The notes: generated by a model from the sequence alone, not told the origin. A stretch of 64,000 nucleotides of DNA from Candidatus Thorarchaeota archaeon (GCA_050124975.1 JASFEF010000002.1:22690-86689); one strand, 5' to 3'; shown: positions 11,622-30,706, counted from the stretch's first letter. Numbers and translations: made by a program.

Positions 11622-12191
11622 TCATTCTGTAATGTTTTGGCGCCATCCAGAGAGTAAATCAATTAGCTCTTCACAGAGCCATCTCTCTTCATAAGCCATC
11701 TGTTTTCTCTTTTCTTGATATGCACCCGATTTGGCAACTCGGAGAATCTTTGATAATCGAGTTTCAACCAAGAAAGGGACCATACGTTGTAGTTTTTCGA
11801 TTTCGTCGTATTTTCTTGGATCTATCGATGTTCTGTCACTCTGTAATCGAAGAACCTTCCTGCTGAGTGCAGTATATAGAAATGGTTGAAATGTCTGCAG
11901 CTTATGTGGTTGTTTTTCTTCTTCACGATAGAGATTCTGAAGTCTTCTAAGTGAATCATATGCATCTTCAGGTACAATGTCTACTATATCATGTTTCAGG
12001 AACCGTTCTATAACCCAATTAGGAAGACTGGCCCGATCTCTCTTCTTGAAAGGACCTAGTTTGTTGCCCCCCACAATTATCTCAGATATTGGTTTAAGAA
12101 ATATACACTCCCGAGATTCGTTAAGGAACATCATCTCAAATCGGTTCATCTCATCTTTAGGTTCACTGCAAAGCTTCATGAAATCCCACAC
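11622..12191 (-). CDS. putative GINS subunit (Gins51-like)
   Basis: 189-aa helical ORF immediately upstream of mcm on the same strand, in the position GINS occupies in many archaeal replisome clusters. The family call is tentative. Confidence 0.3.
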   Translation of the reverse strand: MWDFMKLCSEPKDEMNRFEMMFLNESRECIFLKPISEIIVGGNKLGPFKKRDRASLPNWVIERFLKHDIVDIVPEDAYDSLRRLQNLYREEEKQPHKLQTFQPFLYTALSRKVLRLQSDRTSIDPRKYDEIEKLQRMVPFLVETRLSKILRVAKSGAYQEKRKQMAYEERWLCEELIDLLSGWRQNITE

Positions 12192-12379
12192 ATCTTTTTG
12201 GACTAGCGGAGATAAAGCCCTTGCTCTGTGATAACGAGCCAGAGTGATTAATCCTGTGTTTCATTTTTGAGGTGTAATCGTGTTGCCAGAGAATCTTTTA
12301 AGGGGTCAAGAAAGATGCGTAACAGAATTTGGCAAAAGCGGAAGACTATCACATCTTCAATATTGGATGGGAACTATAA

Positions 12380-14556: not shown

Positions 14557-15346
14557 CATTAACAATGGTCCTAATTGAGCGTCTATATTGTTCAAGTTGT
14601 TCTCTTAATTGATTTCGAATCATTCTGATTGCGTTTTTGCTTGCCTTCATCTTGAATGGAACAATTGTTTCTACAAGGACCAAGTTTTCTGGAGGTGAAG
14701 GTTGAATGCCACTTGCAAGAGCTTTCTGTCCTGAGAGAATTTTGTTGATTGCCTCAAGTTCGATTCTTTCAGTTCCTATCTCTGTAAGTAGTGTGACCAT
14801 TTTGCGCACAAGTTTCCATAGAAATCGAGTTCCAAAGATATCCAGGAATAATGTATCATTATCATCATTAATGGATATATTCAGAATTGTTGTGTTTGTA
14901 TTTCGACCAGAATCAGGTTTTGCTAGTTGATTGAAATCTTTAGATCCAATTAGGAGTGATGTTGCCTTTTTGACAACCTCGAGATTCAGTTTTGCCCAAG
15001 ATTTGTCGAGATAATATCGATAGTGTCGCATTAGTACATCAAAACGCGGAATAAAATTGGGAGGAGCTTCTGTGGATGCCCACAAAATGATATCATCTGG
15101 AAGATAGCGATTGATTTTATCAATGTTGAATTGTTTTTCTGTAGTAATCATGACTAATTGCCCAATACTATGAACTCCTCTATCAGTCCTGCCAGAGATT
15201 TGTACAGTTTGAGTGGAGTGCTGCTCTTTACTCCATTTTTTGAGAGCCCCAATCAGTTCTCCTTGTACTGTAGTGTATTTCGGCTGATATTGTGAACCAT
15301 GATAATTGGTACCCAGATAGAACAAACGAGAAAGATAATTCGCCAT
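14483..15346 (-). CDS. truA: tRNA pseudouridine(38-40) synthase TruA
   Basis: The N-terminus is YLGTNYHGSQYQP and the catalytic Asp lies in the RTDRGVHS motif. The likely start is the internal Met; the longest ORF starts at 15373. Confidence 0.75.
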   Translation of the reverse strand: MANYLSRLFYLGTNYHGSQYQPKYTTVQGELIGALKKWSKEQHSTQTVQISGRTDRGVHSIGQLVMITTEKQFNIDKINRYLPDDIILWASTEAPPNFIPRFDVLMRHYRYYLDKSWAKLNLEVVKKATSLLIGSKDFNQLAKPDSGRNTNTTILNISINDDNDTLFLDIFGTRFLWKLVRKMVTLLTEIGTERIELEAINKILSGQKALASGIQPSPPENLVLVETIVPFKMKASKNAIRMIRNQLREQLEQYRRSIRTIVNVIDYFSEPMMTFQHSTKSRNRSDS

Positions 15347-15360
15347 GTCATGAATACCTC

Positions 15361-15645
15361 TCATGACTCCCAAAGATTGAACAGGCTTCTTAGTGAACGT
15401 GCTCTGAGATCTTCAATCTTGTAACGATAGATTTTGATTCTTCCAAATTTCTTCTCTTCTATAAGGCCTGAGCTCAGTAACACTTCAAGATGGGATTTTG
15501 TTGAACTATGATTGAGGTCTACTCTTCGACAAAGCTCAGAGATATTTAGCTCATTAGAAGCTGCTAGTTCCTTGAGTATCTTGATTCTGCCTCGTGATGA
15601 AAATATGTCCTCAATAGGAACTTTGGGTGAACTTTCAGCGGTCAT
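15361..15645 (-). CDS. small winged-HTH (ArsR-like) transcriptional regulator
   Basis: 94-aa ORF containing ILKELAASNELNISELCRRVDLNHSSTKSHLEVL. Confidence 0.45.
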   Translation of the reverse strand: MTAESSPKVPIEDIFSSRGRIKILKELAASNELNISELCRRVDLNHSSTKSHLEVLLSSGLIEEKKFGRIKIYRYKIEDLRARSLRSLFNLWES

Positions 15646-16856
15646 CTGTTAGCCTCCTTGGATGTATCGAGTAATCCTGACAGGAATTGCTCCAACATCT
15701 CAGCTGGAACATCCGAGAACCCAATAAGAGTAGTCTGACCTCTCTGACCTGAACCTGATTTCTTTGCATCTATTATACCGTGAGAATGAAGATCTTGGAC
15801 CCACTCCCAAATCTGAGTGTGGGCTCGTGGTTCTTCATAGTATTCCTCACATATTGAGCGATACATTTCTTCAACTTCGCCTATTGTGACATATGCACTA
15901 CGAATCTCCCGAAGCTGTCTTGCTGCTGCTAATAGTAGAAGTTTGTGCTGTGTAGGAAGTGTTACAAAAATCTCCTTTCTAAGCTCAGGATGGGTGTCTG
16001 TTTTTGCACGACGTGCATAATCAGGTATAACTACATCTACTTGGTCACTATCAGCGCCTTTGCCAGCACGCCATAAGAGCTCAATTGCATATCGTGCATC
16101 ACCGTGCTCGGAAGCAATATCACAAATGACTTGGATTGTTTCATCCATGACTGTCTTCTTCTCAAAAGCCATTTCTACACGGTCTTGGAGTATGTCATGA
16201 AGTGCGTCACGTCTATACCTCGAGAATCTGAGAACATTGCGTTGTAGGGTGCTTCGTGTACTAGAGTCTAGAATGTCATCATCAAGAGGGATTTTTCGAC
16301 CAATTCCTATAATTGAGAGACGTTGTGTTGCGTTAAGTCTATCATCCATAAGTCGTGTGAGATCATAAAGAATGTCAGCACCTCTCTGCCTTATGAAATA
16401 GTCCAGCTCATCAAGGATAAGGAGAAGATATCGATCTTCTTCATCGAGAATCTCCACTAGCATTTGTAGTAATTCGTCAGGTGAGTGTCCACGTCTAGGA
16501 AACTTAGGTTTGAATTCTCGTAGTGCTCGAAGAAAAACTAGGTATGCGGTCTTGTTGACACGGCAGTTAATGTGAATACTATGAAGTCTGATATTTCGCC
16601 TTTTTGCAGCTTGAATCATCTGTTCAGAAAACCGTTTTGCTACTGCCGTCTTCCCGGTTCCTACAGGCCCCTCAATGATGAACTTGTGACTTGTTCGACC
16701 TGGTGAACTGATTAGGGTCTTAAAACTTTGAACAAGTGTCCTAATCTCAGATTGTCGATGAGGAAGACTTTCAGGCACATAGTCGATAGATAAGAACTGC
16801 TCTGATTTGAATACACTACGTCTGCTGAGTTCATCTTCAACATAGTCGTGAGGCAT
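15642..16856 (-). CDS. orc1: Orc1/Cdc6 replication initiator
   Basis: 404-aa ORF with AAA+ motifs (GPVGTGKT; DELD) and a C-terminal winged helix. Confidence 0.85.
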   Translation of the reverse strand: MPHDYVEDELSRRSVFKSEQFLSIDYVPESLPHRQSEIRTLVQSFKTLISSPGRTSHKFIIEGPVGTGKTAVAKRFSEQMIQAAKRRNIRLHSIHINCRVNKTAYLVFLRALREFKPKFPRRGHSPDELLQMLVEILDEEDRYLLLILDELDYFIRQRGADILYDLTRLMDDRLNATQRLSIIGIGRKIPLDDDILDSSTRSTLQRNVLRFSRYRRDALHDILQDRVEMAFEKKTVMDETIQVICDIASEHGDARYAIELLWRAGKGADSDQVDVVIPDYARRAKTDTHPELRKEIFVTLPTQHKLLLLAAARQLREIRSAYVTIGEVEEMYRSICEEYYEEPRAHTQIWEWVQDLHSHGIIDAKKSGSGQRGQTTLIGFSDVPAEMLEQFLSGLLDTSKEANR

Positions 16857-17996: not shown

Positions 17997-19127
17997 ATGT
18001 CCGGTAATAATGAAAGAATCGAGTTCTGGCAAGGCAATCAAGCTTGTGCAGAAGCTGCTATTACGGCAGGTTGTAGATTCTTTGCAGGTTATCCAATCAC
18101 ACCAGCCTCAGAGATTGCGGAAATTATGTCAGTAAAACTTCCAGTGATTGGAGGTACATACGTTCAGATGGAAGATGAGATTGCTGCTATCTCTGCTGTA
18201 ATTGGCAGTTCTTGGGGAGGATCTTTGTCGATGACAGCAACCTCGGGTCCAGGATTCAGTCTGATGCAGGAAAACATAGGATATGCCATTATGACAGAAA
18301 CTCCTTGTGTTATTGTAGATGTTCAGAGAGCTGGTCCAAGTACAGGACAAGCTACGAAAGCGGCTCAGGGAGATTTTATGCAAGCACGTTGGGGGACTCA
18401 TGGAGACTATGAGAGTATTGTACTTGCCCCCAACTCCGCACAAGAAACATATGAACTGACGTTGAAATCATTTGAGCTATCTGAGAGACTACGCCATCCT
18501 GTCATTCTGCTCTCAGATGAAATTGTGGCGCATTCACGGGAAAAGGTTGTTGTTGATAGAAGCAAGGATAACTCGGTGAAAAGGCGATTCGCAAAGAGAG
18601 GAGATATGTCCTTTGGTGAGATTGATGCTGATGGACATGCGATGATGCCGAGATTTGGCGATGGTCATGATTTGCTCATTACAGGATCGACCCACAATGA
18701 GTCAGGACTACGAAAAACTGCAGACCCAGAGGTGCATGATAGACTGGTCCGTAGATTATCAGCTAAAATTCAGAACAAGCATGAATTATTGGAAGATTAT
18801 GAAATTTCAGGTCCTGATACAGCTGAATGGGGTGTTGTTTCATATGGTTCAACATCTAGATCAGTGGATGAACTGATGGCAATCACATCGGAACCCACAG
18901 TACGGTCTTTCAGAATGAGAACATTGTGGCCGTTCCCTGATGATGCATTAAAGAAATTTGCTAAATCTGTTGATAGGTTGTTGATCCCAGAACTTAGTCT
19001 TGGTCAGCTGTCAAGGGAAGTGAGTCGAGCGGTAGAAGGGTTGGTGGATGTTATTCCCTTGAACAAGATTGGTGGCGGCCTCATGATTGAACCAGATGAA
19101 ATTCTTCGTGAAATGGTCAAGTCTTGA
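17997..19127 (+). CDS. korA: 2-oxoacid:ferredoxin oxidoreductase alpha subunit (KorA/PorA-like)
   Basis: The N-terminus IEFWQGNQACAEAAITAGCRFFAGYPITPASEI and the pyruvate-flavodoxin oxidoreductase domain are present. No beta subunit follows. Confidence 0.7.
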   Translation: MSGNNERIEFWQGNQACAEAAITAGCRFFAGYPITPASEIAEIMSVKLPVIGGTYVQMEDEIAAISAVIGSSWGGSLSMTATSGPGFSLMQENIGYAIMTETPCVIVDVQRAGPSTGQATKAAQGDFMQARWGTHGDYESIVLAPNSAQETYELTLKSFELSERLRHPVILLSDEIVAHSREKVVVDRSKDNSVKRRFAKRGDMSFGEIDADGHAMMPRFGDGHDLLITGSTHNESGLRKTADPEVHDRLVRRLSAKIQNKHELLEDYEISGPDTAEWGVVSYGSTSRSVDELMAITSEPTVRSFRMRTLWPFPDDALKKFAKSVDRLLIPELSLGQLSREVSRAVEGLVDVIPLNKIGGGLMIEPDEILREMVKS

Positions 19128-20842
19128 GGATTATCAATATTGTAGTCACTCGTCGATATCACAATCGTGATGTTTGTTCGCATCCAAACCCTGACAGATA
19201 TTGAATAATTAACTGTCTTGAGATATTGACTGCTGATGCTGAAGGTAAAATTATGAATACCTGGTGATACCCACATGGGAAGTGATGCAATTTGGGTTGT
19301 GTTTGGGTTGACGTAGCCAGTCATTGCAAAAGGCGTTAGTTCGTCATCACAAAATATGGATATCTCAACCAAAGAGATTGATTGATTATTATCATCTTGA
19401 ACATCTATTTCGAATTCTAGGATTTCGTCATAGAATGAGTTTGTAACTGAAACGTTAGCCTCCATTGTTCCAAAAACAATCAGGTTGATTTGTTGAGTGG
19501 GTGTAAACTGATAGTATTCACTCATAGGTGAGATGTTGACAACGTGATGTCCTACTGAGATGTTATGCCAGATTGGGAATGTCAGGAAACTGGTTACACT
19601 TGGTTGAACATCAGATGCCTGCGAAAACTGCATCATTTCATCTGTAAATTGCAATTGTATTGATTGATTCCAGTCAAGAGTTGGTTCGATGAGGAATTCT
19701 ATTGTGACATTGTCACCTCTTGTCACATTCCAAGAGGATTGGGGTGCTGAAAATTGTAATGAGTTGGCAACTACATCTACGACAGTTGTTACTTCAGCAT
19801 TTTGGTATTGAGGATTGATTGCTGTGAGATTGATATGATAAAACCCTGGACTAACATTGAAAGGAATCATGTCTGAATATCTACCATTTCCCAAATCTGT
19901 CAATAATCCAAAACCAAAGCTTGTAGTCCATTGGACTATGCTATCATTTACGGGTTCTGAGTCTATATCCATGTGTTCAACTATAATTTCAGCCTGCTCG
20001 ACGTGACTTCCATCAGGTGACTGACAATATACTGGTCCGGGTGACGATATTATTGTTAGATTGGATGGAGCTGGAAGAACTGTAATTTGAAATGAATCTG
20101 CAAATGGAAGAAAATCCTCGTTTCCATAACCCGAAACAGACAGGTTGTAGGAGCCAGGAAATCCAAAAGAGTCACTCCAGTTGAGATAGACCATGCCTTC
20201 TGAAGTTGGGGTTGTATTCGAATGAAACACTGTTTGTGATTCTGAGTCTTCAACATGAAGATTGACTAGCTCTCCAGAGTAGACTACATTATTATTGTGA
20301 GTACTTGCAATCTTTAGTGGAATAGATGTATTCAATCCATATTGTACTGATAGAGAAGACAAAGGAATGGTGTCGAGATGTCCTCTGTTGATTGTTATTT
20401 CGATATTATCGCCAGCGCTTTGATACACTGTATCGAAGATTTCTACTGTGAAAAGCGCAAAGGCTTGAGCTCCTGATTCATTAGGGGCAGTATGTTCAGG
20501 TAAGATTGTATATGATGAATTCAGGTAGCGAACTGCAGGAAACGGGGGAATGTAGTATTCGTCCGCATAAGACGGTCCAAGATCAGTCACAAGAGCAAAT
20601 GAAACATAACACCATCCCTCGTCGCTGAAATCTGCAATAAGTTTAGCAACCATGTTAATGGTTTCTCCAACTTCATAAACTAGTTTGTCTGTTTCAAAGT
20701 ATTGAAAATCGAAGTAGAAGGCTGAAACTGGGATTACGAAGCATGCAATAAGGAGAAGAGCGATGGGTACAAGTGCTGTTTCTTTTTGTTTCACCAGACT
20801 ACACCAGAAAATCGTCGTTATCTTTCCTAAAAAACAGCACAT
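19004..20842 (-). CDS. secreted/cell-surface protein, hypothetical (sequon-rich)
   Basis: There is an N-terminal signal/TM segment, and N-x-S/T sequons are numerous through a beta-rich body. It overlaps korA convergently by 124 nt. Confidence 0.45.
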   Translation of the reverse strand: MCCFLGKITTIFWCSLVKQKETALVPIALLLIACFVIPVSAFYFDFQYFETDKLVYEVGETINMVAKLIADFSDEGWCYVSFALVTDLGPSYADEYYIPPFPAVRYLNSSYTILPEHTAPNESGAQAFALFTVEIFDTVYQSAGDNIEITINRGHLDTIPLSSLSVQYGLNTSIPLKIASTHNNNVVYSGELVNLHVEDSESQTVFHSNTTPTSEGMVYLNWSDSFGFPGSYNLSVSGYGNEDFLPFADSFQITVLPAPSNLTIISSPGPVYCQSPDGSHVEQAEIIVEHMDIDSEPVNDSIVQWTTSFGFGLLTDLGNGRYSDMIPFNVSPGFYHINLTAINPQYQNAEVTTVVDVVANSLQFSAPQSSWNVTRGDNVTIEFLIEPTLDWNQSIQLQFTDEMMQFSQASDVQPSVTSFLTFPIWHNISVGHHVVNISPMSEYYQFTPTQQINLIVFGTMEANVSVTNSFYDEILEFEIDVQDDNNQSISLVEISIFCDDELTPFAMTGYVNPNTTQIASLPMWVSPGIHNFTFSISSQYLKTVNYSISVRVWMRTNITIVISTSDYNIDNPQDLTISRRISSGSIMRPPPILFKGITSTNPSTARLTSLDS

Positions 20843-20916: not shown

Positions 20917-21282
20917 ATGGTAATTAGGCTAAAGACAGCTGTTATAGATTCTGTTGAAGAAACTGAAACTAGAAGATTGAAGATATTGAAGGTGTCTTCG
21001 AAAAGTGATGGTGCTACTCTCACATTGGAGCTGCCTGATGCAATATGTGACACGTTGAACACCAATGATTCCATCACTGTAGTTATTGATTCTAAACCGA
21101 TTACGAAAGGTGAAAAGGCGAAGCTATACGTTGAAAGCGGTGTCTTCAAGAAGATAGAGAAAAATGGTTTGGAGGTAATTGGATCAGTAGGCGGATTAAG
21201 ATTGGTCTTCACTCTTGGGAAAGCTACTCCAAGTCAGAGTAATATTTTCAACTCTGAGCGATTCTTCCTAGCAATCATGTAA
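20917..21282 (+). CDS. putative RNA polymerase subunit Rpo8 (RpoG, Rpb8-like OB fold)
   Basis: 121-aa ORF. Local resemblance to Rpb8 (LTLEL...DSITVVIDS; GGLRLVF) and the position upstream of tfb support the call. It is tentative. Confidence 0.4.
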   Translation: MVIRLKTAVIDSVEETETRRLKILKVSSKSDGATLTLELPDAICDTLNTNDSITVVIDSKPITKGEKAKLYVESGVFKKIEKNGLEVIGSVGGLRLVFTLGKATPSQSNIFNSERFFLAIM

Positions 21283-21456: not shown

Positions 21457-22500
21457 GTGTGGTTTTTGACTGATGGAACATGTGAATCTCGTTTAACGAA
21501 TTCGAAATCTTGTCCTGACTGTAGCGGTTTTCTTGTCACTAGTCAAGGACATATAGTATGTGCTGAATGTGGTTTGGTACTCTCAAGAGAGTATGTCTTG
21601 CCCACATACCAGATGGGAGAGAGACCAAGTGGTGATTCTCCTGATGCAAGTATGTATGTGTCTTTGGGTAATCGGATGCATATTGTAGATGGCCTTGGTA
21701 GCTACATCGGTTTTCACAAGGATCGATACTTCCAAGATGCTCAGGGACATGCATTGTCTGGAAGAAAGCAAAAGAAGTTCAAACGCTTGAAGACGATATA
21801 CAGTACTAGAATCAGAATTGGTAAGAATGAGGCGAAGTACAGAGCTCTGCGAACCCTCAATCATGTATCAAAGCTTCTCATGATCAATGAGCAAGTTCGT
21901 GATCGGACTGCCTATCTGTACAAGAAAGTGGTGAATGAAACAGCTGGAAATGTGAGTAATAACATTCTGCTGATAGCAGTCTGCCTTCTTATGGCTGTAA
22001 GGGAATTCAAAGAAGAAGCTCCAATAACACTTGATGAGATAGCCGATGTGTTTGAGAAATGTGGACACCGGGTCAATGTGAGAGCGATTGTGCGGGAAGC
22101 GCTTAGGCTCAAATCACTCACAGGTTACTCACCTGAGATACGGAAACCAGAGGATTATGTCCCAAGAGTGCTGTCTATGTTGATGAACAGCCCAAGAGTA
22201 GTCAGCAAGGTTCAATCAAGAGGTTGGGAGATAAAGGACTATGAAAATGCTCTCAGAAAAAAGATACTAGAAGTTCTCAAGATGATACCTGCTTCAAAGA
22301 GAGGTGGAAGGAACCCTTTCATATTCACAGTTTCAGCTGCTTATGCAAGTGATAGACTGATTGCTGTGCAGCATGGAAAACGAGCTGTTCTAACTCAGAA
22401 GCTTGCATCGACTGCAACAAAAGTGGCTGAATACAGTATCAGAGATCACTTCGGGATGATGAAGAAAGTCATTGAGATATCTCATGCAAGCATCCAGTGA
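21457..22500 (+). CDS. tfb: transcription initiation factor TFB (TFIIB homologue)
   Basis: An N-terminal zinc ribbon (CPDCSG...CAECG) is followed by two cyclin-fold repeats. Confidence 0.85.
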   Translation: MWFLTDGTCESRLTNSKSCPDCSGFLVTSQGHIVCAECGLVLSREYVLPTYQMGERPSGDSPDASMYVSLGNRMHIVDGLGSYIGFHKDRYFQDAQGHALSGRKQKKFKRLKTIYSTRIRIGKNEAKYRALRTLNHVSKLLMINEQVRDRTAYLYKKVVNETAGNVSNNILLIAVCLLMAVREFKEEAPITLDEIADVFEKCGHRVNVRAIVREALRLKSLTGYSPEIRKPEDYVPRVLSMLMNSPRVVSKVQSRGWEIKDYENALRKKILEVLKMIPASKRGGRNPFIFTVSAAYASDRLIAVQHGKRAVLTQKLASTATKVAEYSIRDHFGMMKKVIEISHASIQ

Positions 22501-22556: not shown

Positions 22557-24263
22557 GTGGTTTATTGGGTGAACTCAGATATCTATGTGATTCAATGTCC
22601 TAGTGGACGTTGTGAGAAATGTCCCCAGAAGATTAATCGCGGTTGCCAGAAGCTAGATGGCATTAGAGAATCCGGAAACGTGGAAATAAAATTGGTGTTG
22701 GTTGAACCCGAAAGGGGTTTACTCCACTTCTGCGATTCAATCAGTAACATACAAACTGAGCCTTCTTGGAAGACTGATGGGTGGGAAACTTTCTTCGTAG
22801 GTCCAAATAGCCATCTATTCGAAGGGGTAGATAATCTCGTGGCTATTTACAAGGTTGGACCTTATCTATCCATGTTCAGGCGGAATGAAAATAATCAGAC
22901 AGAATATATTACAGCTCCATTGGTTAGAACCGCTCTAGAACACTCACTTATTGAAGAGTTGAGTCACAAGTCGGTGTATTTTGGAGATAAAACATCTTCA
23001 TTAAGAAATGGTATTACTCAGAAACTGAAGCAGGTTACAGATGATGTTTCGAAACACATCATGAGTCTAATACCTGAAATTAATGAAACTACGAGAAAGA
23101 ATCTCTCAGAGATTGTTGCTCATCGTCGTAGCGTTCTTGGTCCCTTAATGCCCATTGTACTTGATGATTTCGTAGAGGAGATATATCTTGATAGTCCAGG
23201 AGTGCCCGTATATTTTGACCATCAGAAGTATGGTAGATGTATCACTACTATCACTTTTCGAAAACATGATGTGCCAAGGATTATCACGTTGATTCGTGCT
23301 GAGAGTAACTTTCACCTTGATAGAAGTAATCCATCTCTCAAAATGAATTTACAGATTCAAGATGCATCGTTGCGTTTCTCTGTGAGTATACCACCGCTCA
23401 GTCCGGATGGTTTACACCTTGAGATACGTAGGGCGAGAAACCATCCATTCTCAATTAATGATTTGATAGAAAACGGTACAATGACACCTGAAGTTGCAGC
23501 AATTCTACTTTTTGCTGTTTCATGTCGGTTCAATATTACAGTGACTGGGGGTCCAGGAACCGGGAAGACTACCTTGTTGAATGCATTAGATTTGACTACT
23601 CCAACATGGTGGAGAAAAATCTACATCGAGGATGCCATTGAGAGTAGAAAGCAGAGTAATCATCATCAAGTTCGATTCATGGTAGATCCCATGGATGAGC
23701 AATTGGTGAAATTAAGCAAAAGTGATGAGATAATCAAATGTCTTCACAGGTCACCAGACTATCTTGTACTTGGAGAAATTCAGACTGCTGAGCATAGTAA
23801 AGCTCTATTTCAGGCGATTACTGCCGGTCTCAGAACTATCCAGACCTGTCATAGTGAGTCAGCTTCAAGTCTCATTTCTAGATGGAAGCTAGGACACGGA
23901 ATCCAAGATGATAATCTTGCACTGATGGATGTCATAGTCACCCTCGAAAGACCAAGACCAGGTGAGTCAAAACGAAGAGTAAAGGAAATTTCTGAAATCC
24001 GGAGAAAAAACGTTAATGGCTTGATAGAATTTGCAGGCCTCAACAATGTGTATGATAGTAGTAGAGAGGATATCGATAGCTGGGCAGATGATGGGGCATT
24101 CATAACGCGAGCAAGAGATATTGGAGTTGAGAGTCATGTTCCGGCTCTAAGTACCTTGATTGATACTGTTCGTCATAGTGTGTACCATTCTAGTCTTGAT
24201 ATGTTGAGTGAGAAGATGTGGTCATATGGACATCCTATGAGGTACGTAGAGCGCACAACATGA
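22557..24263 (+). CDS. type II/IV secretion-system ATPase of the FlaI/VirB11/TadA class
   Basis: An N-terminal CxxC...CxxC cluster is followed by Walker A TGGPGTGKTTLLNAL, a Walker B/Asp box PDYLVLGEI and a His box TCHSESA. The PGVPVYF segment is typical of this ATPase class. Confidence 0.7.
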   Translation: MVYWVNSDIYVIQCPSGRCEKCPQKINRGCQKLDGIRESGNVEIKLVLVEPERGLLHFCDSISNIQTEPSWKTDGWETFFVGPNSHLFEGVDNLVAIYKVGPYLSMFRRNENNQTEYITAPLVRTALEHSLIEELSHKSVYFGDKTSSLRNGITQKLKQVTDDVSKHIMSLIPEINETTRKNLSEIVAHRRSVLGPLMPIVLDDFVEEIYLDSPGVPVYFDHQKYGRCITTITFRKHDVPRIITLIRAESNFHLDRSNPSLKMNLQIQDASLRFSVSIPPLSPDGLHLEIRRARNHPFSINDLIENGTMTPEVAAILLFAVSCRFNITVTGGPGTGKTTLLNALDLTTPTWWRKIYIEDAIESRKQSNHHQVRFMVDPMDEQLVKLSKSDEIIKCLHRSPDYLVLGEIQTAEHSKALFQAITAGLRTIQTCHSESASSLISRWKLGHGIQDDNLALMDVIVTLERPRPGESKRRVKEISEIRRKNVNGLIEFAGLNNVYDSSREDIDSWADDGAFITRARDIGVESHVPALSTLIDTVRHSVYHSSLDMLSEKMWSYGHPMRYVERTT

Positions 24264-24324
24264 TCTGTTCCTTTTTGGGGGCTTTAAAAGGAGTCGAATT
24301 AACATGAGTTAAAGGTGGAAATCT

Positions 24325-24534
24325 TTGACGAAGGATGATAGTTTGATTCATGATGAGCAGGGAGGTCCGTTGGTTGAGGAAAGTCTGCTCCTTGGTTTAG
24401 CAGTTGTTACTGTTTCAATTGTGATAGCGGTCATCCTTCAGGCTACCGGATGGGCACAAGATGTTGTTGAGGGATTACTTCAACTTCTTCAGGATAGTTG
24501 GAGCAGTCTGACACAGTTATTCGGCACACCATAA
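24325..24534 (+). CDS. putative Flp-like / class III signal-peptide pilin
   Basis: 69-aa ORF. The polar leader ends ...EQG, then GPLVEE with Glu at +5, then a hydrophobic helix LLLGLAVVTVSIVIAVI. This matches the Flp pilin G/xxxxE(Y) pattern. Confidence 0.4.
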   Translation: MTKDDSLIHDEQGGPLVEESLLLGLAVVTVSIVIAVILQATGWAQDVVEGLLQLLQDSWSSLTQLFGTP

Positions 24535-24619
24535 CAATACTGTTCTAGTTATGGGGAAAGGCTTATTTGTGGAATTTCTGACGAGCCTTCTCGCGCTCCG
24601 GACAGGCATTCCATTCACG

Positions 24620-24729
24620 GCTCCGGTAGAGTGTTGTATATTTCTATACAATAACACCGATTGTAGTCCGGCCCAGCATGGGGGACTCTCGATCCTCCGA
24701 CCCGGGTTCAAATCCCGGCCGGAGCACCA
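24620..24729 (+). tRNA. tRNA-Glu (anticodon CTC) with a ~32-nt intron in the D-arm region (non-canonical position), CCA encoded
   Basis: The 3' part folds as ...CAT-G-GGGGA/CTCTCGA/TCCTC-CGAC-CCGGG/TTCAAAT/CCCGG-CCGGAGC-A-CCA. The matching acceptor strand GCTCCGG lies 110 nt upstream. The intervening sequence is about 24630-24661 and contains the hairpin TTGTATA/TATACAA. Confidence 0.65.
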
Positions 24730-24739
24730 TCTTTCATTA

Positions 24740-26740
24740 TTAGCCTACGAGATATCTTCGTCGAATGATTGGAACTGTTGAAATCCCAACAGAAGCGATA
24801 AGAGCTATTGTTAGACCCATAATGCCAACTCCTTGTAGTGACATTACATCAGCTATTGTTACTTCGATTATGAACGAGCCACTAGTTGAGATGATTGAGC
24901 TTGTTGTTTCCGACTCATAGTATAAGACATAATTACCACTAGTAGCAGGGATTCTAAGATGAAGAAAGATTATGCCTCCTTCAGTGGTTTCAGCATTGAA
25001 ATTCGAGTTCAACCAATCAAAGTTAACTTGGACATTCTTTAGGGTCGATCCATTATAGCCTCTTAGTGTGAGATGTACCGACAATTCGTGGAGAGGGGCT
25101 ACAACTTCATAGAAACCAAGTTCTAGTCGCACAGGCATTTGACTAGTTACTTGGAGGTCATAATCAAACTTGACTGATGATTCAAAGAGTGTGTCGTTCC
25201 CATCATAAAATATGGAGATATTGTATTGTTTCTCGATGAATGGAACAGAGAAAGAGAAAATTACTCGACCATTTGTATCAGTGACATCCGATAGTTGGAT
25301 TTCATCATCTATCAGGAACTGGAGTGGTCTAAAGGAACAGTTTCCAGCCCAGTCGGTCATCTGGAGTTCGATAGAAACCTCTTGGCCAGGGGATGCATAG
25401 TGTTCAACATTGCATTTTACTAGTGATATCGTAGGGGTAGACCAAGCTGAGAAAGTAATACTTGAACTAGTATTCGTTATGAACGAGTTTTCTGTGATTT
25501 CTATATTGAGTGTGTGAATCCCAGCAGGACCTTGTAATTCGTATTGAAAGTTGGTGGTAGTTTCAATTGGACTTGAAGGAATTGTGAATCTCTGGTTGGA
25601 TGTGGAGTCAATAATTGAGATTAAGGAGTTGGGAATAGCACGACCTAGTAGATCAGAAACAGTGATTTCAATATCGACGCTGGAACCAATCCCGACTGAT
25701 TCAGGCACCTCAATAAGTATCTGAGCAGGACTTGTTACAGAAAAAGATGATTCGAGATAGGATTCAGAATATCGTTCAGTCCCGTTGTAGCGTATTATTA
25801 GTGAATGAGTCCCAAGTGTGAATCTTTCATCAATGATGATATGGAAATGGCCAATTCCAGAACTGTTGGAAGTGGTGATAAGTAGGGGGATATCATCTAG
25901 GAGTAGTTGAAGAGATTCGTTTGGTATTATGTTGCTTGTTTCATAGAGTTCAGCATACAGATCTACAGATTCATCGAGTCCGATTTCGTTGGGAAGAGGG
26001 TTTTGAAGAATGAGAGAAGTTTGTATTTTTGATATTTCGACTGTGAAATTAAATTCTGATGCGTCGAGAGAATTGATCAAGTCTTGATTGTACACAACAC
26101 GAATGTGATTATCTCCCAATGTAATCCATGAACTGTTACACATGATATCAAAATGGATACCTCCAGACGAGTTCGTTGTGCCTATTGCAAGTGGTGTATC
26201 ATCCTTGAAGATTGTCAAAGTTGCATCTGATATTGGATTATGTGAATCATCAGTCAGATGAAGTGAAAAGGATAGGTAGTCACCTGGAGCCAGTATATCA
26301 GGAGTTTGGTCAATCTCAATGTTGGTGGATGATAGTATTACCAGCGTTGTCCATTGGTATGAGGGTGCTAGAGAGAGAGACTCATTGCCATAGAATGTTG
26401 CATTGATTATTGTAGGTCCAAGGACATGATCTGAGGGAATATTCCAAGAAATGGAGGCAATGCCATTTGCATCCGTCTTGTCAGAGCCAATGAGAGAGTC
26501 GAATGTCTGGTCATAGAAGTATATTCTCTGGTTTGATACAGGGTTTCCATAGCTACCATTCTGAAGAAGAGTGATTGTGATTGTTACTGCATCCCCTCTA
26601 ACAACCACTGCTTCACCTTCTGCTGAAACCGGTTCAGTGTTGAACACGATCAATGAAAGTAGAACTATGAATATTACCGGGAACCAGTACGATTTCCTGA
26701 TGATATGTACCCCCTTGGGGAAGTTACAGGTATTTCTCAC
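24740..26740 (-). CDS. cell-surface protein, hypothetical; N-terminal signal peptide, sequon-rich beta-rich domains, C-terminal TM anchor followed by RRR
   Basis: 666-aa ORF. The N-terminus is MRNTCNFPKGVHIIRKSYWFPVIFIVLLSLIVF...SAEGE and the C-terminus is ...GIMGLTIALIASVGISTVPIIRRRYLVG. N-x-S/T sequons are frequent. Confidence 0.5.
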   Translation of the reverse strand: MRNTCNFPKGVHIIRKSYWFPVIFIVLLSLIVFNTEPVSAEGEAVVVRGDAVTITITLLQNGSYGNPVSNQRIYFYDQTFDSLIGSDKTDANGIASISWNIPSDHVLGPTIINATFYGNESLSLAPSYQWTTLVILSSTNIEIDQTPDILAPGDYLSFSLHLTDDSHNPISDATLTIFKDDTPLAIGTTNSSGGIHFDIMCNSSWITLGDNHIRVVYNQDLINSLDASEFNFTVEISKIQTSLILQNPLPNEIGLDESVDLYAELYETSNIIPNESLQLLLDDIPLLITTSNSSGIGHFHIIIDERFTLGTHSLIIRYNGTERYSESYLESSFSVTSPAQILIEVPESVGIGSSVDIEITVSDLLGRAIPNSLISIIDSTSNQRFTIPSSPIETTTNFQYELQGPAGIHTLNIEITENSFITNTSSSITFSAWSTPTISLVKCNVEHYASPGQEVSIELQMTDWAGNCSFRPLQFLIDDEIQLSDVTDTNGRVIFSFSVPFIEKQYNISIFYDGNDTLFESSVKFDYDLQVTSQMPVRLELGFYEVVAPLHELSVHLTLRGYNGSTLKNVQVNFDWLNSNFNAETTEGGIIFLHLRIPATSGNYVLYYESETTSSIISTSGSFIIEVTIADVMSLQGVGIMGLTIALIASVGISTVPIIRRRYLVG

Positions 26741-26914
26741 AATCTGATTTGGTGTACCAGTTCTCCATTCAGTTTCTGGGTTTTTATTCTCCTATAGAGT
26801 GTACATTGATGTATAATCTGTTTAGAGGTGTTCTTATGCTCAACAATGGTACGATGGTTCGGTTCCGTAGGCAATCATTCTTGGGCTAGAAAAAACAAGA
26901 TGAGGATTTCGTAG

Positions 26915-29900
26915 ATGCCATTTCATTTGCCCCGAAAAGGAGGATTAGGATTGGTTTCTTATGATTCACATAGAAAACCAAGGTCATGGCTGAGTATAAT
27001 CTGGACGATTGGAAATCTATTTGCCGGATTGTATTTGTTAGCGGTTTACTTGTTGCCATTGACTGGATTGGTTAGTCAACCATTGATTCCTCTAAAGACG
27101 GTTGTTGAAGTGACCATCTGTTTGATTCCAGTAATAACAGGATTTGTGTTGACTGTAAGAAAAGTTCGTCTTCAGAATCCTTTGGTTTCGGTAGAAGGTA
27201 GCACATTATTGATTCAACTTGGTGACCATGTGATTGGGACCTGCTGTCTCGATATTCTGTCCGTATCCGGTTCGGTGTATCTAGACGAAAATGGAAAACC
27301 AAGGTATAATGAGAGTATGTTATTGGCAATGAGGGCAGGAATGGACAAATCGGTAACAATGGCTTTTGAAGCGGGTGTATCTAATGGTGAACCGTTCTTG
27401 TATATCTTCATAACTGCAGTTGGACATAGCTTGAAGCAAATTCAGGAGATTCTGAGAAGAGAAGCAACCAGAACTGAAGCAATTCTTTTGTCTTCTCTGA
27501 ACAATGTGGAACTGAAACTTCTGGAGGGTGATTTACTGCAAGATGTTGTTTTGACGCATATGGAAGGGGTATACATAGAATCTCAAGGGATAATCCTCAA
27601 TGAGAGAGTAAAATCGATGGGAATCATAACCTTACAAGGATTACCCCGGACATTCCCAACACAGGATGCTTCTCAGGTAGGGACATTCATTTCAACTGTA
27701 CTCAGACAAGGGTATACAACAAGCATGACCTGTGTGTTTTCTTCAGCTAAACCAGGGAAAGAGAAACGTACACTTGAAAGTCAATGGAAAAATATCCAAG
27801 CAAAGGAAAAGCGGAAGGAAGAATCGCTTCAAGACTATGCAGAAAAGAAAAAACTAGTGACTCGTTATGAAGAAATTCAAGATAGGGCTGGTTGGTTTGA
27901 TACTACAGTATACTTCAAAGTGAATACATCAGCTACAAGTCATATTGAAGCTGATCTAAATGGAGTAGTTGGGCTAGTCCATGCCATTTGGGGTGGTGGT
28001 GATTCAATCAAGCTAAGTAAGCAGAAGTTGTCAAAACGGACAGCGTATAGGATGCTATCTCGTCGTCATTTGAAACGACAACGTATGCATATAGCTCGAC
28101 TGTCATCTTTTGTAAACACGCCGATTCAACAGCTTCCAGCTATCACTCCAAGACATGCACCGACATTTCCAGTTCCTGCTAAGGATTTGTTGGACAATGA
28201 ACTTGTTATTGGTGAAACAGTCTTCGGAGGGCGACGTTTATCAAATGCTGGATTGGAGGTTGATTGGTTAAGGGAGCATGTTACGATTTTGGGGGCAACT
28301 GGAACAGGGAAGACAACTCTTGTGAAGCATCTTATAGCTCAGTTAAGTACGGAAACGGATGTACCTTGGTGGATATTTGACGTCAAGGGGTCTGAGTATC
28401 TTAATCTGGTTGGTCATGGCGAATCAGAAATCCTAGTTCTAAGACCAGGTCTTGACTCTTCTTTTGTAATCAACCTTATCGACTCTGAGATGGCAAATGA
28501 TGAGAACCATGCTCATTCTACATTTGTGATATTGAGAGAGCTGTTGAATGAAAGAGGCGATTCTTCTGAACTTTCTCCAGCAATGGAAAAACTCCTGCGT
28601 GATTCAATAATGAAAATGGCAGTAACACTGGATCAGGGTAACTCAGTTCAGTTTCTAGTCAAGATGATTTCAGAGGTTGCTGGTAATGATCGTATAGGAA
28701 GCATGACCAGAGATGCGTTGCTCAATCGCCTTGAGATAGTGACTCGCGAACCACTAGCATCAATCCTTGGAGATGATACAGAAACTGTTCGATTTTCGGA
28801 ACTACTAAACAAGCGTGTTATCTTCGATCTTTCGTATGTTGCACGAGTAGGGGGAATGGATTCTGCAAGACTCCTCTACAATCTTGTTGCTAAACGAATT
28901 TTCGAAAGTGCAATGAGAAGAGGTGTCACTGAAGGTTTACATCATGTTGTTGTGTTAGAAGAAGCAAGTAATCTCGTGCCTGAAAGCTATACAAGACATT
29001 CAGCAGCAGATGTGACGACTGGAGAATCTATGGTGATGCTACAACGGGCTACCGGACAAGGCGTTGTTGTGATATCAACTAGACCCAATATCTCTTCGAA
29101 CATTTTAGCGAATACTTCAACTAAGATTGTATTTCGATTGCCTTATGATAGTCAAGTTGGTGGAAGATTCCTTTCTTTGAACGAGGATCAAGAACAGTAT
29201 CTTCGCACGATGCAACGAGGAAGAGCCTTGATGAGTATACCTCATACTGAAACCTTTGAAATTGTCACACAACGGTTTTCTGAAACTTTGGTGCAGGAGA
29301 AACCAGCAGATTCTATTGAACACAGTTCCATTCCAACAGTTGAAACTCCTGAAACAGATGATGCGAAAGATTTGGTGAGCGACAAAGAAGTATCTGAACC
29401 AGACCAAGACTCCAAGGCTCAGACCCTTGTTTTCAACAGAATTGACAGACTTGGAAGTCATGTTGTTGCATTTTTAGCATCGGAAGGATGGGCGACAGAA
29501 GGTGAAATCCGAAATCTTCTTTCAGTGTTGGATTCTACCGTAGTGGATGATGATATTTCGGAGGTTATTCGAAATCTTGTATCATTGGGTAGTGTTGAGA
29601 GAGAAGCCTTGGCGCTTGTTGATGGTGGATTTGTATTTGCCCTCCCTGGAAAGGCTTTGAACGCAGTCAGGCGTGTAATTGTTGAGTATATATCTGGAAA
29701 ACTTGGAATAGAGTATAATCCTTCGACCTCTTCTGATAATCCTGATTGGCCAGATATTGTCCTTGAGGACAGGGCTGTAATTGTAATTCCTCAGCATCTG
29801 AGAGCGTCATCTATGGTTTTGACATTAGATGGGATTCGTAATCAAATGAGTAAGCTTCAGAATGGTGTAAGCGAACTCATTGTTGTTGTCAGAGGCAGTG

Positions 29901-30706
29901 TTGCTGCTGCAAAGCTGAGAGAATTGATGGATTCATCGGAGGAGTTCAATGATGTTAGTGTTGTTTCAGCATTTCCTAAATCTCTGGATTCGATTATTGA
30001 AGGTTTGACTCACGAACCCGTTTTGTCTGAAGAAGCCTCCATTCAAACACAACTGGAAGAGAACACTGATTCGGACAAGCAGGAGGACTTGATTGGTGCG
30101 ATGCACGATGTAGGTTCTGCAACCAATCGAGCAATTCAGATTCGGCTGTGGTTTGGTCTGATTCAGGATTTGGTTGACATATCCAACGGCCAAGTCAAAT
30201 GGGAGGAGCTATTGGAATTCATTGAAACCACTGCTCTACAGTCTTTGAAAGGAAGATCAGCTCCATTAAACATAGAAGAAGGAAAACGTGCTCTGACAGA
30301 GTTGCTGGCTGATGAGGTTTTAATTGCATTACGTGTCAATGATAAATCCCAGTTTGTCGAGCTTGCAGAAGGCCTCTGGTTGGTGAACTCGTCAGTTCTC
30401 AAGAGTCTGAAAGAAAAGGCGATAACCAAAATAGAGCAAGAGCTGAAGAAACACCATTCAAAGGTGTCTAAGAATCATGGTTACTACGATCTTTGTGTTG
30501 GGAATATTTCGTATGTCATATTTCCAAATCAGCAACAACTGAATACGCTTCTTCATTTACATAGTGATATTGCTTGCAGGACCTGTAAATCAACAAAGGT
30601 TGTTTGTGTTTTAACCGCATCAGAGTATCTTGAAGAAAGTGAAACGACACCGAGTAATCTAATCGTTAAGACAATGGATGACAATATGTCAGCCCTTGTA
30701 ACATGA
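26915..30706 (+). CDS. membrane-anchored HerA/FtsK/VirB4-superfamily ATPase (DUF87-like), 1263 aa
   Basis: Two or three N-terminal TM helices are followed, in the central region, by Walker A ILGATGTGKTT, the HerA/VirB4-type motif WWIFDVKGSEY and Walker B VVVLEEASNL, then VVVISTRPN. The C-terminal stretch of about 500 aa is acidic and has no recognised domains. Confidence 0.6.
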   Translation: MPFHLPRKGGLGLVSYDSHRKPRSWLSIIWTIGNLFAGLYLLAVYLLPLTGLVSQPLIPLKTVVEVTICLIPVITGFVLTVRKVRLQNPLVSVEGSTLLIQLGDHVIGTCCLDILSVSGSVYLDENGKPRYNESMLLAMRAGMDKSVTMAFEAGVSNGEPFLYIFITAVGHSLKQIQEILRREATRTEAILLSSLNNVELKLLEGDLLQDVVLTHMEGVYIESQGIILNERVKSMGIITLQGLPRTFPTQDASQVGTFISTVLRQGYTTSMTCVFSSAKPGKEKRTLESQWKNIQAKEKRKEESLQDYAEKKKLVTRYEEIQDRAGWFDTTVYFKVNTSATSHIEADLNGVVGLVHAIWGGGDSIKLSKQKLSKRTAYRMLSRRHLKRQRMHIARLSSFVNTPIQQLPAITPRHAPTFPVPAKDLLDNELVIGETVFGGRRLSNAGLEVDWLREHVTILGATGTGKTTLVKHLIAQLSTETDVPWWIFDVKGSEYLNLVGHGESEILVLRPGLDSSFVINLIDSEMANDENHAHSTFVILRELLNERGDSSELSPAMEKLLRDSIMKMAVTLDQGNSVQFLVKMISEVAGNDRIGSMTRDALLNRLEIVTREPLASILGDDTETVRFSELLNKRVIFDLSYVARVGGMDSARLLYNLVAKRIFESAMRRGVTEGLHHVVVLEEASNLVPESYTRHSAADVTTGESMVMLQRATGQGVVVISTRPNISSNILANTSTKIVFRLPYDSQVGGRFLSLNEDQEQYLRTMQRGRALMSIPHTETFEIVTQRFSETLVQEKPADSIEHSSIPTVETPETDDAKDLVSDKEVSEPDQDSKAQTLVFNRIDRLGSHVVAFLASEGWATEGEIRNLLSVLDSTVVDDDISEVIRNLVSLGSVEREALALVDGGFVFALPGKALNAVRRVIVEYISGKLGIEYNPSTSSDNPDWPDIVLEDRAVIVIPQHLRASSMVLTLDGIRNQMSKLQNGVSELIVVVRGSVAAAKLRELMDSSEEFNDVSVVSAFPKSLDSIIEGLTHEPVLSEEASIQTQLEENTDSDKQEDLIGAMHDVGSATNRAIQIRLWFGLIQDLVDISNGQVKWEELLEFIETTALQSLKGRSAPLNIEEGKRALTELLADEVLIALRVNDKSQFVELAEGLWLVNSSVLKSLKEKAITKIEQELKKHHSKVSKNHGYYDLCVGNISYVIFPNQQQLNTLLHLHSDIACRTCKSTKVVCVLTASEYLEESETTPSNLIVKTMDDNMSALVT

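Follow-up and report, generated by a model that had tools for sequence, protein, structure and literature searches.

Within the 64-kb window (the whole stretch of Candidatus Thorarchaeota DNA analysed), a motor ATPase, a pilin-like protein and their own paralogue of TFB (TFIIB) are encoded beside a giant VirB4/HerA-like ATPase, making the locus, a reduced form of a pilus-type machine, a candidate cell-contact or DNA-transfer apparatus. We estimate a probability of about 0.55 that these genes form one composite system, in which components of type-IV-filament (Tad-like) descent are joined to a VirB4/Ced-like membrane ATPase, and that the locus is the Thorarchaeal form of a gene set shared by all Asgard groups sampled. 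Comparative genomics defines a core of three genes, encoding the TFB paralogue, a TadA/CpaF-class ATPase and a protein of ~70 aa. The system is probably used in cell contact or DNA transfer, a function that we infer, and it may act in DNA uptake or adhesion.

Gene organisation of the locus

An earlier note on this DNA had reported the co-occurrence of a secretion ATPase, a pilin-like gene, a tRNA gene, an anchored secreted protein and a large P-loop ATPase, and all five were recovered in the 64-kb window at the coordinates below; the TFB paralogue, a probable Rpo8 gene and an 84-aa protein with two transmembrane (TM) helices had been overlooked.

19004–20842, minus strand: secreted sequon-rich protein, 612 aa; Thorarchaeota-specific neighbour of uncertain membership
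20917–21282, plus strand: probable RNA polymerase subunit Rpo8 (RpoG), 121 aa; conserved upstream neighbour, possibly a mere flank
21457–22500, plus strand: divergent TFB (TFIIB) paralogue, 347 aa, with Zn ribbon and cyclin repeats
22557–24263 (probable start 22569), plus strand: TadA/CpaF/FlaI-class hexameric secretion ATPase with N-terminal Cys4 module
24325–24534, plus strand: Flp-like, pilin-like single-TM protein, 69 aa
24621–24729, plus strand: tRNA-Glu(CUC) with a probable ~30-nt non-canonical intron after the acceptor stem
24740–26740, minus strand: secreted Ig-repeat glycoprotein, 666 aa, anchored by a C-terminal TM helix; transcribed divergently from its partner, the HerA-like gene
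26915–30706, plus strand: membrane-anchored VirB4/CedD/HerA-like ATPase, 1263 aa
33924–34178, plus strand: two-TM hairpin protein, 84 aa; possible further component

The absence of a nearby TadC/FlaJ-type platform, VirD4 or integrase, as described previously, held up: the 64-kb window contains no platform or TadB/TadC-like gene, and there is none within 8 kb in any Thorarchaeota locus, while neither integrase nor VirD4 was found among the window ORFs profiled or read. Hydropathy gave no prepilin-peptidase-like polytopic protein in the window, and the locus contains no VirB6-like polytopic protein or relaxase, with no CedA/VirB6-like channel protein seen. The locus also lacks the arrangement associated with HerA-NurA end resection, a cytosolic HerA with a NurA nuclease partner. 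No common promoter k-mer was found upstream of the system genes in 65 Thorarchaeota loci. Genes for Orc1, RFC and MCM lie near the locus.

The ATPase, the TFB paralogue and the small pilin-like protein

The ATPase matched Pfam T2SSE (E 4e-23, 82 bits with a cut-off of 24.9), which places it in the PilB/TadA family, and its four N-terminal cysteines (C14, C19, C22 and C30) are invariant in 12 orthologues, bearing out the earlier description of a secretion ATPase with an N-terminal Cys cluster. The Walker A (GGPGTGKTT) and Walker B (DYLVLGEIQ) motifs are likewise invariant. Since the orthologues are 564 aa long, the true start is probably the GTG at 22569. The best PDB relatives were Archaeoglobus GspE2 (E 1.7e-26), CpaF (E 2.5e-23) and FlaI (range E 1e-20 to 1e-26), and TIGR03819 was matched with E 1.9e-29. 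Such ATPases also have a precomputed Pfam family (UCP018868/PF27713). The proposed VirB11 class had to be abandoned, as the NCBIfam VirB11 model gave 70 bits (cut-off 250), below the TadA and FlaI models, and orthologous loci carry T2SSF-type platform genes. As judged from these results, the ATPase descends from the type-IV-pilus/Tad lineage and does not belong to the VirB11 proteins of type IV secretion systems.

Located 57 bp upstream of the ATPase gene, the TFB paralogue aligns over the full TFB model, matching Pfam TFIIB (E 5.6e-6) and a TFB in the PDB (E 0.008). It was rejected as a canonical TFB on the basis of a score of 62.8 bits with NCBIfam PRK00423 (cut-off 384) and the PGAP name 'hypothetical'. 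It shows 57–96% identity across Thorarchaeota and adjoins the ATPase gene in Baldr, Odin and other loci, with the two genes overlapping in the Baldr and Odin loci; in these comparisons it is the most constant partner of the ATPase. The 121-aa protein upstream of it is a probable Rpo8, as the sole Pfam family matched was RNA_pol_RpbG, by three of four orthologues and at values weaker than the cut-off (E 0.0014–0.037). A 117-aa counterpart occupies the same position in locus L083 (RpbG, E 0.0065) and L116 also has one, while searches of PDB sequences and profiles found nothing for the Thorarchaeal candidate.

The 69-aa ORF is a real gene: the earlier note had allowed for an ORF lacking homologues, and 375 were found. 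Orthologues are 84–97% identical, and over 57 codons there were on average 27 synonymous versus 3.9 non-synonymous codon differences, indicating strong purifying selection. The protein has a single hydrophobic helix and the invariant motif GGPLVEESLLLG, which therefore places Glu at +5 of either possible cut after G. A prepilin-like motif, [KRQ]-[GA]/[GS]-P-L-[IV]-E (the slash marking the predicted cut), is kept across Asgard classes and would give a mature protein of ~55 aa with G or A at -1. Of the reported Flp hallmark, the Glu at +5 of the possible cut and the hydrophobic helix are present, but pilin and Flp families in Pfam and NCBIfam gave no match even at E 10. Two further features count against a pilin: in Thorarchaeota the leader is net acidic, and conservation is higher in the small protein than in the ATPase, unlike in exposed major pilins. 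We describe it as a Flp-like, pilin-like protein with a predicted prepilin cleavage site. In other Asgard loci its gene always adjoins either ATPase/TadB/TadC genes or a HerA-like gene.

The membrane-anchored ATPase and its surface-protein partner

Two hydrophobic helices lie at the N terminus of the 1263-aa protein, which also has a DUF87/HerA core (E 6.5e-12) with a conserved FDVKGSEY motif, in agreement with the N-terminal TM helices and HerA/FtsK/VirB4-type P-loop core described earlier. Its layout comprises the two TM helices, an N-terminal domain, the P-loop core, an acidic linker and two copies of a winged helix plus a small alpha/beta module, with the winged-helix domains in a 470-aa tail. 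The best NCBIfam match was CedD, over the ATPase domain only (E 2.8e-13, 49 bits with a cut-off of 600), and scores were 17 bits for CedB (cut-off 700) and 24 bits for VirB4 (cut-off 643). VirB4 was also the best structural match, at 7% sequence identity, with the predicted models being of moderate confidence only (pLDDT about 72, pTM 0.45–0.51). The protein is predicted to be anchored in the membrane, unlike the cytosolic HerA-type helicase that the earlier note had named as the outcome opposing its proposal. Homology of the C-terminal tail to a multi-wHTH protein encoded beside a relative in L009 was rejected, as the two lack similarity.

The divergently transcribed 666-aa protein, previously noted as secreted with a C-terminal TM anchor followed by RRR, indeed has this anchor, together with a signal peptide, Ig-like repeats (Big_3_5, E 2e-18) and 14 sequons. 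A 647-aa homologue (24% identity, E 2e-23) is found in the same divergent position in L006, where its partner is a relative of the HerA-like ATPase at only 28% identity. The 612-aa protein also has a signal peptide (PVSA/FYFDF, cut at the slash) and carries 21 sequons (N-x-S/T), matches nothing in Pfam and, like the Ig protein, evolves fast. The 84-aa two-TM protein may be a further component: in L009 the HerA-like gene is immediately preceded by a homologue, and others adjoin the TFB-like gene of ATPase-TadB-TadC clusters in Borr/Sif loci. Searches of PDB, Pfam and NCBIfam with this family gave one weak TrbC match (one member, E 0.008), by which it might be VirB2/TrbC-like.

Recurrence of the gene set in Asgard archaea

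The triad of TFB-like gene, TadA/CpaF-class ATPase and small Flp-like protein was found in about 60 MAGs of Thorarchaeota and again in loci of Baldr-, Odin-, Hel- and other Asgard archaea, and the gene set occurred in every Asgard group sampled here. Outside Thorarchaeota, 18 metagenome loci extended for 5 kb or more to either side of the small gene; both the ATPase and the TFB-like gene were found in 14 of them, an adjacent LSm gene in 12 and the HerA-like gene in one, making the last an occasional and not a constant member. Platform genes of the TadB/TadC type occur in L083, L088, L099, L104, L107, L116 and other orthologous loci, as do extra pilin-like genes with an N-terminal TM helix, with seven of ten TadB-like members matching Pfam T2SSF (best E 1.4e-5) and a profile-profile probability of 8.7% between TadC-like and TadB-like proteins. 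No platform gene was found within 8–10 kb in the Baldr and Odin loci.

The link to the HerA-like ATPase comes from loci outside Thorarchaeota. The metagenomic locus L116 has a single co-directional cluster of ATPase, TadB, TadC, small gene, a TM+NTD gene and a HerA ATPase gene (HerA HMM E 1.4e-60), and in metagenomic L135 a gene for a 607-aa TM+HerA-like protein begins 3 bp after the small gene. In Helarchaeota (L090) the TFB-like gene (41% identity, E 3e-90) directly precedes a 1393-aa HerA-like gene, with the small gene 2.3 kb downstream and no T2SSE gene within 8 kb, and in Borrarchaeum (L076) the HerA-like gene lies 7 kb from the ATPase-TadB-TadC-TFB cluster. The search of related genomes for a conserved neighbourhood, as the earlier note had advised, thus did find ATPase, pilin-like and HerA-like genes together. 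Its grouping of ATPase, pilin-like gene and VirB4/HerA-like ATPase as one recurrent set is supported by L116, L135 and L090, but outside Thorarchaeota the HerA-like gene is an occasional neighbour (1/18). Neither a lack of co-location nor a cytosolic HerA-like protein, both of which had been named as grounds for refutation, was observed, because the genes form a recurrent set and the HerA-like protein is predicted to be membrane-anchored.

Synteny within Thorarchaeota was rejected as evidence of function and is uninformative, because the housekeeping flanks (Cdc6, POR, IPK, S10 and GlmS) keep their order as well. The adjacency of the genes consequently proves nothing, which leaves room for a serious though unlikely alternative, that two unrelated modules have become neighbours in Thorarchaeota: a Tad-like adhesion-pilus triad, and a pair of Ig protein and membrane HerA-like ATPase serving in surface-protein handling, defence, or FtsK-like pumping of chromosomes or DNA at division. 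Each module is found alone, the Ig/HerA pair in L006, and the triad in Baldr (L081), Odin-labelled (L087) and L078 loci with no HerA or Ig gene nearby. Some HerA-like relatives have no system gene nearby (L091) or have only the Ig-like partner (L006) or the two-TM protein (L009). A breakpoint of the L056 inversion lies exactly at the junction of the small gene and the Ig gene, leaving the Ig/HerA pair joined, and this alternative also fits the FtsK-like order of TM, motor and C-terminal winged helix and the presence of Orc1/RFC/MCM genes close by. Yet the operon-like fusion in L116 and L135 and the TFB-then-HerA order in Helarchaeota are hard to obtain by chance.

An improbable explanation, though one with a published parallel, is that no filament is made, and that the ATPase, its small TM partner and the TFB paralogue, close to Rpo8 and LSm genes, form a device that is tethered to the membrane and serves regulation or is linked to transcription. 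Asgard archaea would then have an equivalent of the type-IV-pilus-like 'subclade 4D' system of Thermoproteales, for which a transcription-related role was proposed (Makarova, Koonin and Albers 2016, PMC4858521). In both, as described, the ATPase carries a small Cys-rich domain at its N terminus, the operon includes a TFB homologue, RPB8 (here the probable Rpo8) is adjacent, and typical pilins and TadC are absent; the very slow evolution of the small and TFB-like proteins, the TFB-like/ATPase gene overlap in Baldr and Odin, and the LSm gene adjacent in 12/18 loci point the same way. However, orthologous loci have T2SSF-type platform and extra pilin-like genes, the prepilin-like site of the small protein is conserved, and the subclade 4D partner is a protein of 4–5 TM helices instead of a 69-aa single-TM protein. 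Furthermore, its TFB has one cyclin domain, whereas the paralogue described here aligns with the full TFB model, and no HerA-like ATPase was reported there.

The tRNA-Glu gene is a conserved chromosomal neighbour

ARAGORN placed tRNA-Glu(CUC) at 24654–24729, and a 5′ acceptor strand (GCTCCGG) is present at 24621–24627, followed by an insert of ~30 nt, suggesting that the gene probably starts at 24621 and has a non-canonical intron. The earlier note had regarded this tRNA as an integration hotspot, and an integrated conjugative or mobile element would fit its position in mid-locus and the VirB4-like and secretion-type ATPases typical of such elements, but this was rejected as highly improbable: GC content is uniform (0.40–0.42) with no compositional break around the tRNA, there is no integrase and no att-like repeat of the tRNA 3′ end, the genes are at the same place between housekeeping genes in about 60 Thorarchaeota MAGs, and the tRNA adjoins the small gene in non-Thorarchaeota loci also. 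The tRNA is a conserved neighbour, and not an integration scar.

Comparison with known systems and a proposed mechanism

The Tad/Flp pilus (CpaF/TadA, TadB, TadC and Flp), with its archaeal Epd-like relatives, resembles the locus in its ATPase class, in the split TadB-like/TadC-like platform seen in relatives of the locus, and in the size, predicted cleavage site and single helix of the small protein. The Thorarchaeota locus differs in the absence of platform and peptidase genes, in an unusually conserved small protein without Flp or pilin profile match, in the Cys4 module, and in the attached TFB paralogue and VirB4/HerA-like ATPase.

In Sulfolobales, TFB3 activates the Ups and Ced genes (PMC6101591, PMC6101594), and this network likewise combines a type-IV-pilus ATPase and pilins with a membrane-anchored HerA/VirB4-like ATPase and a TFB paralogue as dedicated activator, as proposed for this locus, although TFB3 is a truncated TFB whereas the paralogue here is of full length. 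The 1263-aa protein has the TM + NTD + ATPase architecture of CedB and CedD (PMC11868833) and CedD as its best NCBIfam match, but falls far below the CedD and CedB cut-offs, and its 470-aa winged-helix tail is absent from both. The genes are also linked in one place, and neither a CedA polytopic channel protein nor a CedA1 VirB2-like pilin was found in the window, where the 84-aa family is weakly TrbC/VirB2-like. VirB4 (TrwK) of type IV secretion systems shares the P-loop, the FtsK-HerA superfamily and the D-x-K-G-x-E-Y motif, but differs by its low identity and profile score, and in the 1263-aa protein VirB3 is replaced by intrinsic TM helices and a C-terminal winged-helix tail is added. The locus contains none of VirB6, VirB8, VirD4 or a relaxase of the VirB/D4 system.

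Many other lineages have, within this operon, a TadB/TadC-like platform and further pilin-like genes, and some have a membrane-anchored VirB4/HerA-like ATPase after the small gene. At the Thorarchaeota locus the platform genes are missing, the ATPase bears the invariant Cys4 module, and the HerA-like ATPase, enlarged to 1263 aa with two winged-helix modules, is paired divergently with the anchored Ig-repeat surface protein. According to the composite-system reading, the TFB paralogue may switch on the set, in the manner of TFB3 acting on Ups and Ced genes, after which the TadA-class ATPase would power the step by which the small protein is assembled or extracted to form a short filament or membrane stalk, and the Ig protein would make contact. 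A VirB4/CedB/CedD-like hexamer, held in the membrane by its two helices, may then bind nucleic acid via its winged helices and move DNA (or pilin) across the membrane, so that the whole would resemble Ups and Ced combined, serving contact between cells and exchange of DNA. A narrower version, which is tentative and rather doubtful, is that of a dedicated Asgard machine for DNA exchange or uptake, in which a TFB paralogue of its own controls a Tad-like pilus joined to a VirB4/Ced-like membrane DNA translocase. It would correspond, within one locus and possibly as an ancestral form, to the Ups, Ced and TFB3 network of Sulfolobales, with the VirB4-like ATPase or the 69-aa protein replacing the lost TadB/TadC platform in Thorarchaeota.

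Significance

Asgard archaea are the closest known relatives of eukaryotes, and to our knowledge almost nothing is known of their surface machines. No published description of this gene set was found in the literature searched, which is no proof of absence. It would extend the unexplained combination of TFB, Cys-ATPase and RPB8 of Thermoproteales to the Asgards, and offers a candidate for the membrane DNA translocase that works with type IV pili in archaea. Contact with partner cells and gene exchange in Asgard archaea bear directly on models of eukaryogenesis, and because the gene set has a TFB paralogue of its own and occurred in all the Asgard groups sampled, it provides a concrete target for genetics and structure.

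Gene content of the locus

The base composition along this window of the Thorarchaeota (Asgard) chromosome is even (GC 0.40-0.44). All five elements that an earlier note had joined into one compact surface apparatus (secretion ATPase, small Flp-like protein, tRNA, anchored secreted protein and big membrane ATPase) were found and correctly placed, and further genes missed in that first reading were recognised beside them:

20917-21282, + strand: probable Rpo8, 121 aa, upstream of the TFB paralogue (missed earlier)
21457-22500, + strand: divergent TFB paralogue, 347 aa, on the same strand as the secretion ATPase and directly upstream of it (missed earlier)
22557-24263, + strand: secretion ATPase of the TadA/CpaF/FlaI class, 568 aa
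24325-24534: small Flp-like protein, 69 aa, with 375 homologues
24621-24729: tRNA-Glu(CUC), combining the ARAGORN call (24654-24729) with an acceptor-strand match upstream
24740-26740, - strand: Ig protein, 666 aa
26915-30706, + strand: HerA-like ATPase, 1263 aa
33924-34178, + strand: two-TM hairpin protein, 84 aa, 3.2 kb past the HerA-like ATPase (missed earlier)

The secretion ATPase matched Pfam T2SSE (E 4e-23) and, all far under the family cut-offs, the NCBIfam models TIGR03819 (1.9e-29), FlaI (2.7e-26) and VirB11 (merely 1.3e-19), with GspE2, CpaF and FlaI as the nearest solved structures. Four N-terminal cysteines and the Walker A and Walker B motifs were invariant in 12 orthologues, and the true start probably lies 12 nt downstream of the called one. 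The TFB paralogue, labelled hypothetical by the NCBI pipeline, scored 62.8 bits (cut-off 384) and was similar to the Pyrococcus TFB core at just E 0.008; the sole Pfam match of the probable Rpo8 was archaeal Rpo8, below threshold. This gene adjoins the TFB paralogue of the system across Asgard classes (in the window and in the homologous loci L083:4623-4976 and L116:1957-2319), and an LSm gene lies beside them in loci outside Thorarchaeota.

Homologues of the two-TM protein adjoin relatives of this system in other loci. In L009 (1340-1591) one immediately precedes a HerA-like gene, and in the ATPase-TadB-TadC clusters of Borr and Sif one sits beside the TFB-like gene (L076:12614-12892); one family member gave a weak match to TrbC/VirB2 (E 0.008). 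Upstream of the locus, 7169-16856 holds replication genes (Hel308-like, MCM-like, RFC small and large subunits, and Orc1/Cdc6 at 15642-16856, - strand), named from reading the sequence alone save for Cdc6, which had precomputed Pfam matches in orthologous loci; Borr and Baldr-type loci likewise have an Orc1/Cdc6 gene close to the system. The genes for the POR alpha-subunit (17997-19127, +) and a secreted 612-aa protein (19004-20842, -) overlap convergently by 124 bp, and are called likewise in L003 and L004.

With 24654 as the 5′ end of tRNA-Glu(CUC), as called by ARAGORN, there is no pairing to the 3′ acceptor strand. Since a perfect complement (GCTCCGG) is present at 24621-24627, with an insert of ~30 nt that can form a hairpin after it, and versions spliced in silico are called tRNA-Glu from base 1, the gene probably carries a non-canonical intron of ~30 nt right after the 5′ acceptor strand. 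The unspliced genomic sequence scored 25.1 bits with the Rfam tRNA model (threshold 29).

The small protein

The 69-aa ORF is a genuine gene beyond question. Identity between orthologues is 84-97%, compared with 50-79% for the neighbouring ATPases, and codon differences (mean over 57 codons) are 27 synonymous versus 3.9 non-synonymous. The site [KRQ]-[GA] | [GS]-P-L-[IV]-E-[EQ]-[GS]-L-L-[LI]-G is kept across Asgard classes, and resembles that of Flp and type IV prepilins in the G/A at -1, the Glu at +5 and the hydrophobic helix that follows. Three features speak against a classical major pilin: the extreme conservation, the lack of any match to a pilin profile, and the net acidic leader of the Thorarchaeota proteins (mean charge -1.8), which is basic in other classes.

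The Ig protein and the HerA-like ATPase

The Ig protein, whose gene is on the minus strand, carries a signal peptide and 14 sequons, contains Ig-like repeats and is anchored by a C-terminal TM segment. The 1263-aa protein combines two N-terminal hydrophobic helices with a DUF87/HerA P-loop core, and is one of a large family of ATPases anchored at the N-terminus, with 2038 representatives at E <= 1e-3. Its AlphaFold models were of moderate confidence (pLDDT 72.8 and pTM 0.51 for residues 85-800, 72.3 and 0.45 for 801-1263). Lower-ranked structure matches included DptH (15.7), Sulfolobus HerA (13.2), the VirB4 C-terminal domain (12.5), TrwB (12.4) and FtsK (8.5); EccE of type VII secretion was also matched (10.9 and 9.6), probably by the N-terminal domain of the model. 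The top NCBIfam model was CedD (49 bits, cut-off 600), a recently described DNA-import ATPase of Saccharolobus (PMC11868833), with which the protein has the layout of TM, NTD and ATPase in common. From the structure matches and CedD as best NCBIfam model, we therefore predict that it works like a membrane ATPase of the VirB4/CedB/CedD type; by their own thresholds it falls outside all three families.

Association of the genes across Asgard archaea

The block is collinear in about 60 Thorarchaeota MAGs, down to ~40% ATPase identity, in the order Cdc6-POR-secreted 612 aa-Rpo8-TFB-ATPase-small-tRNA-Ig-HerA-IPK-S10-GlmS. Because this collinearity includes the flanks, adjacency within the class cannot tell whether the genes form one system, and loci outside Thorarchaeota were examined. 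Scanning genomes with the ATPase profile brought up MAGs of Baldr-, Odin-, Borr-, Sif- and other Asgard groups. A tight triad of TFB-like, ATPase and small genes, the first two overlapping, was present in Baldr (L081), an Odin-labelled locus (L087) and L078, with no HerA or Ig gene nearby. L083 and L088 have the order LSm, Rpo8-like, TFB-like, a pilin-like 138-aa gene, a 686-aa ATPase with Cys-rich N-terminus, membrane proteins of 229 and 219 aa, and the small gene. The first membrane family (TadB-like) resembles T2SSF in 7/10 members (best E 1.4e-5), and the second is TadC-like by position only. In Borr and Sif loci, ATPase-TadB-TadC is accompanied by the two-TM protein and by a TFB-like gene in convergent orientation. 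When metagenomes were scanned with small proteins from outside Thorarchaeota, 46 loci were obtained, 18 of them flanked by at least 5 kb on either side; the ATPase and a TFB-like gene were each found in 14 of these 18.

The HerA-like family recurs inside this system. L116 carries, on one strand, ATPase-TadB-TadC-small-(TM+NTD)-(ATPase domain), preceded by LSm, Rpo8, TFB-like and four pilin-like genes, and in L135 the small gene is followed after 3 bp by a 607-aa TM+HerA-like gene. On a Helarchaeota contig a 1393-aa HerA-like relative comes directly after a TFB-like gene that shares 41% identity with that of the window (E 3e-90), with a small gene 2.3 kb downstream and no secretion ATPase within 8 kb; the ATPase cluster of Borrarchaeum has a HerA-like relative 7 kb away. 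The relative in L006, just 28% identical, keeps a divergent 647-aa Ig protein homologue (E 2e-23) in otherwise unrelated surroundings.

The four pilin-like genes of L116 (3401-5443, -; 279, 144, 124 and 127 aa) are consecutive, lie upstream of the ATPase, and each encode an N-terminal hydrophobic helix like that of minor pilins; their counterpart is the 138-aa gene in L083-type loci, with none in Thorarchaeota. L126 (9980-11763) has genes of 128 and 383 aa after the small gene, where L116 carries its split HerA-like pair; lacking both a Walker A motif and an HMM match, the 383-aa product may represent a degenerate, inactivated copy.

The single apparatus proposed in the earlier note is supported in part, in that a VirB4/HerA-like ATPase recurs inside this system (L116, L135, Helarchaeota), but its presence in just 1/18 well-flanked loci speaks against a strict link. 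Moreover, no system genes accompany the HerA-like gene in L091, only the Ig partner does in L006 and only the two-TM gene in L009, and in L056 the small and Ig genes are parted exactly at the breakpoint of an inversion. Our reading of these gene orders is that the triad would form the core, often with a TadB/TadC-like platform, and the VirB4/HerA-like ATPase a recurrent yet facultative addition, which in Thorarchaeota appears fixed and paired with the Ig protein.

Nearest described systems and proposed function

No description of the Asgard gene set was found in the literature searched. The nearest described oddity is 'subclade 4D' of Thermoproteales, which has the same RPB8-TFB-ATPase adjacency as the Asgard loci: an ATPase with N-terminal Cys domain, a TFB homologue and RPB8, without pilins, for which its authors suspected a transcription-related role (PMC4858521). 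Such a role is a live rival here too. We class the Asgard set as machinery of the type IV filament kind, to which a VirB4/Ced-like ATPase and a TFB of its own are added. Gene content, conservation and predicted folds are what the analysis shows; how the set may work we infer. The TFB paralogue would activate the gene set, as suggested by the precedent of TFB3, which activates ups and ced genes (PMC6101591, PMC6101594). The TadA-class ATPase would drive the small protein into a filament or stalk, the Ig protein would make contact, and the anchored VirB4-like hexamer, with winged helices, would move DNA or pilin.
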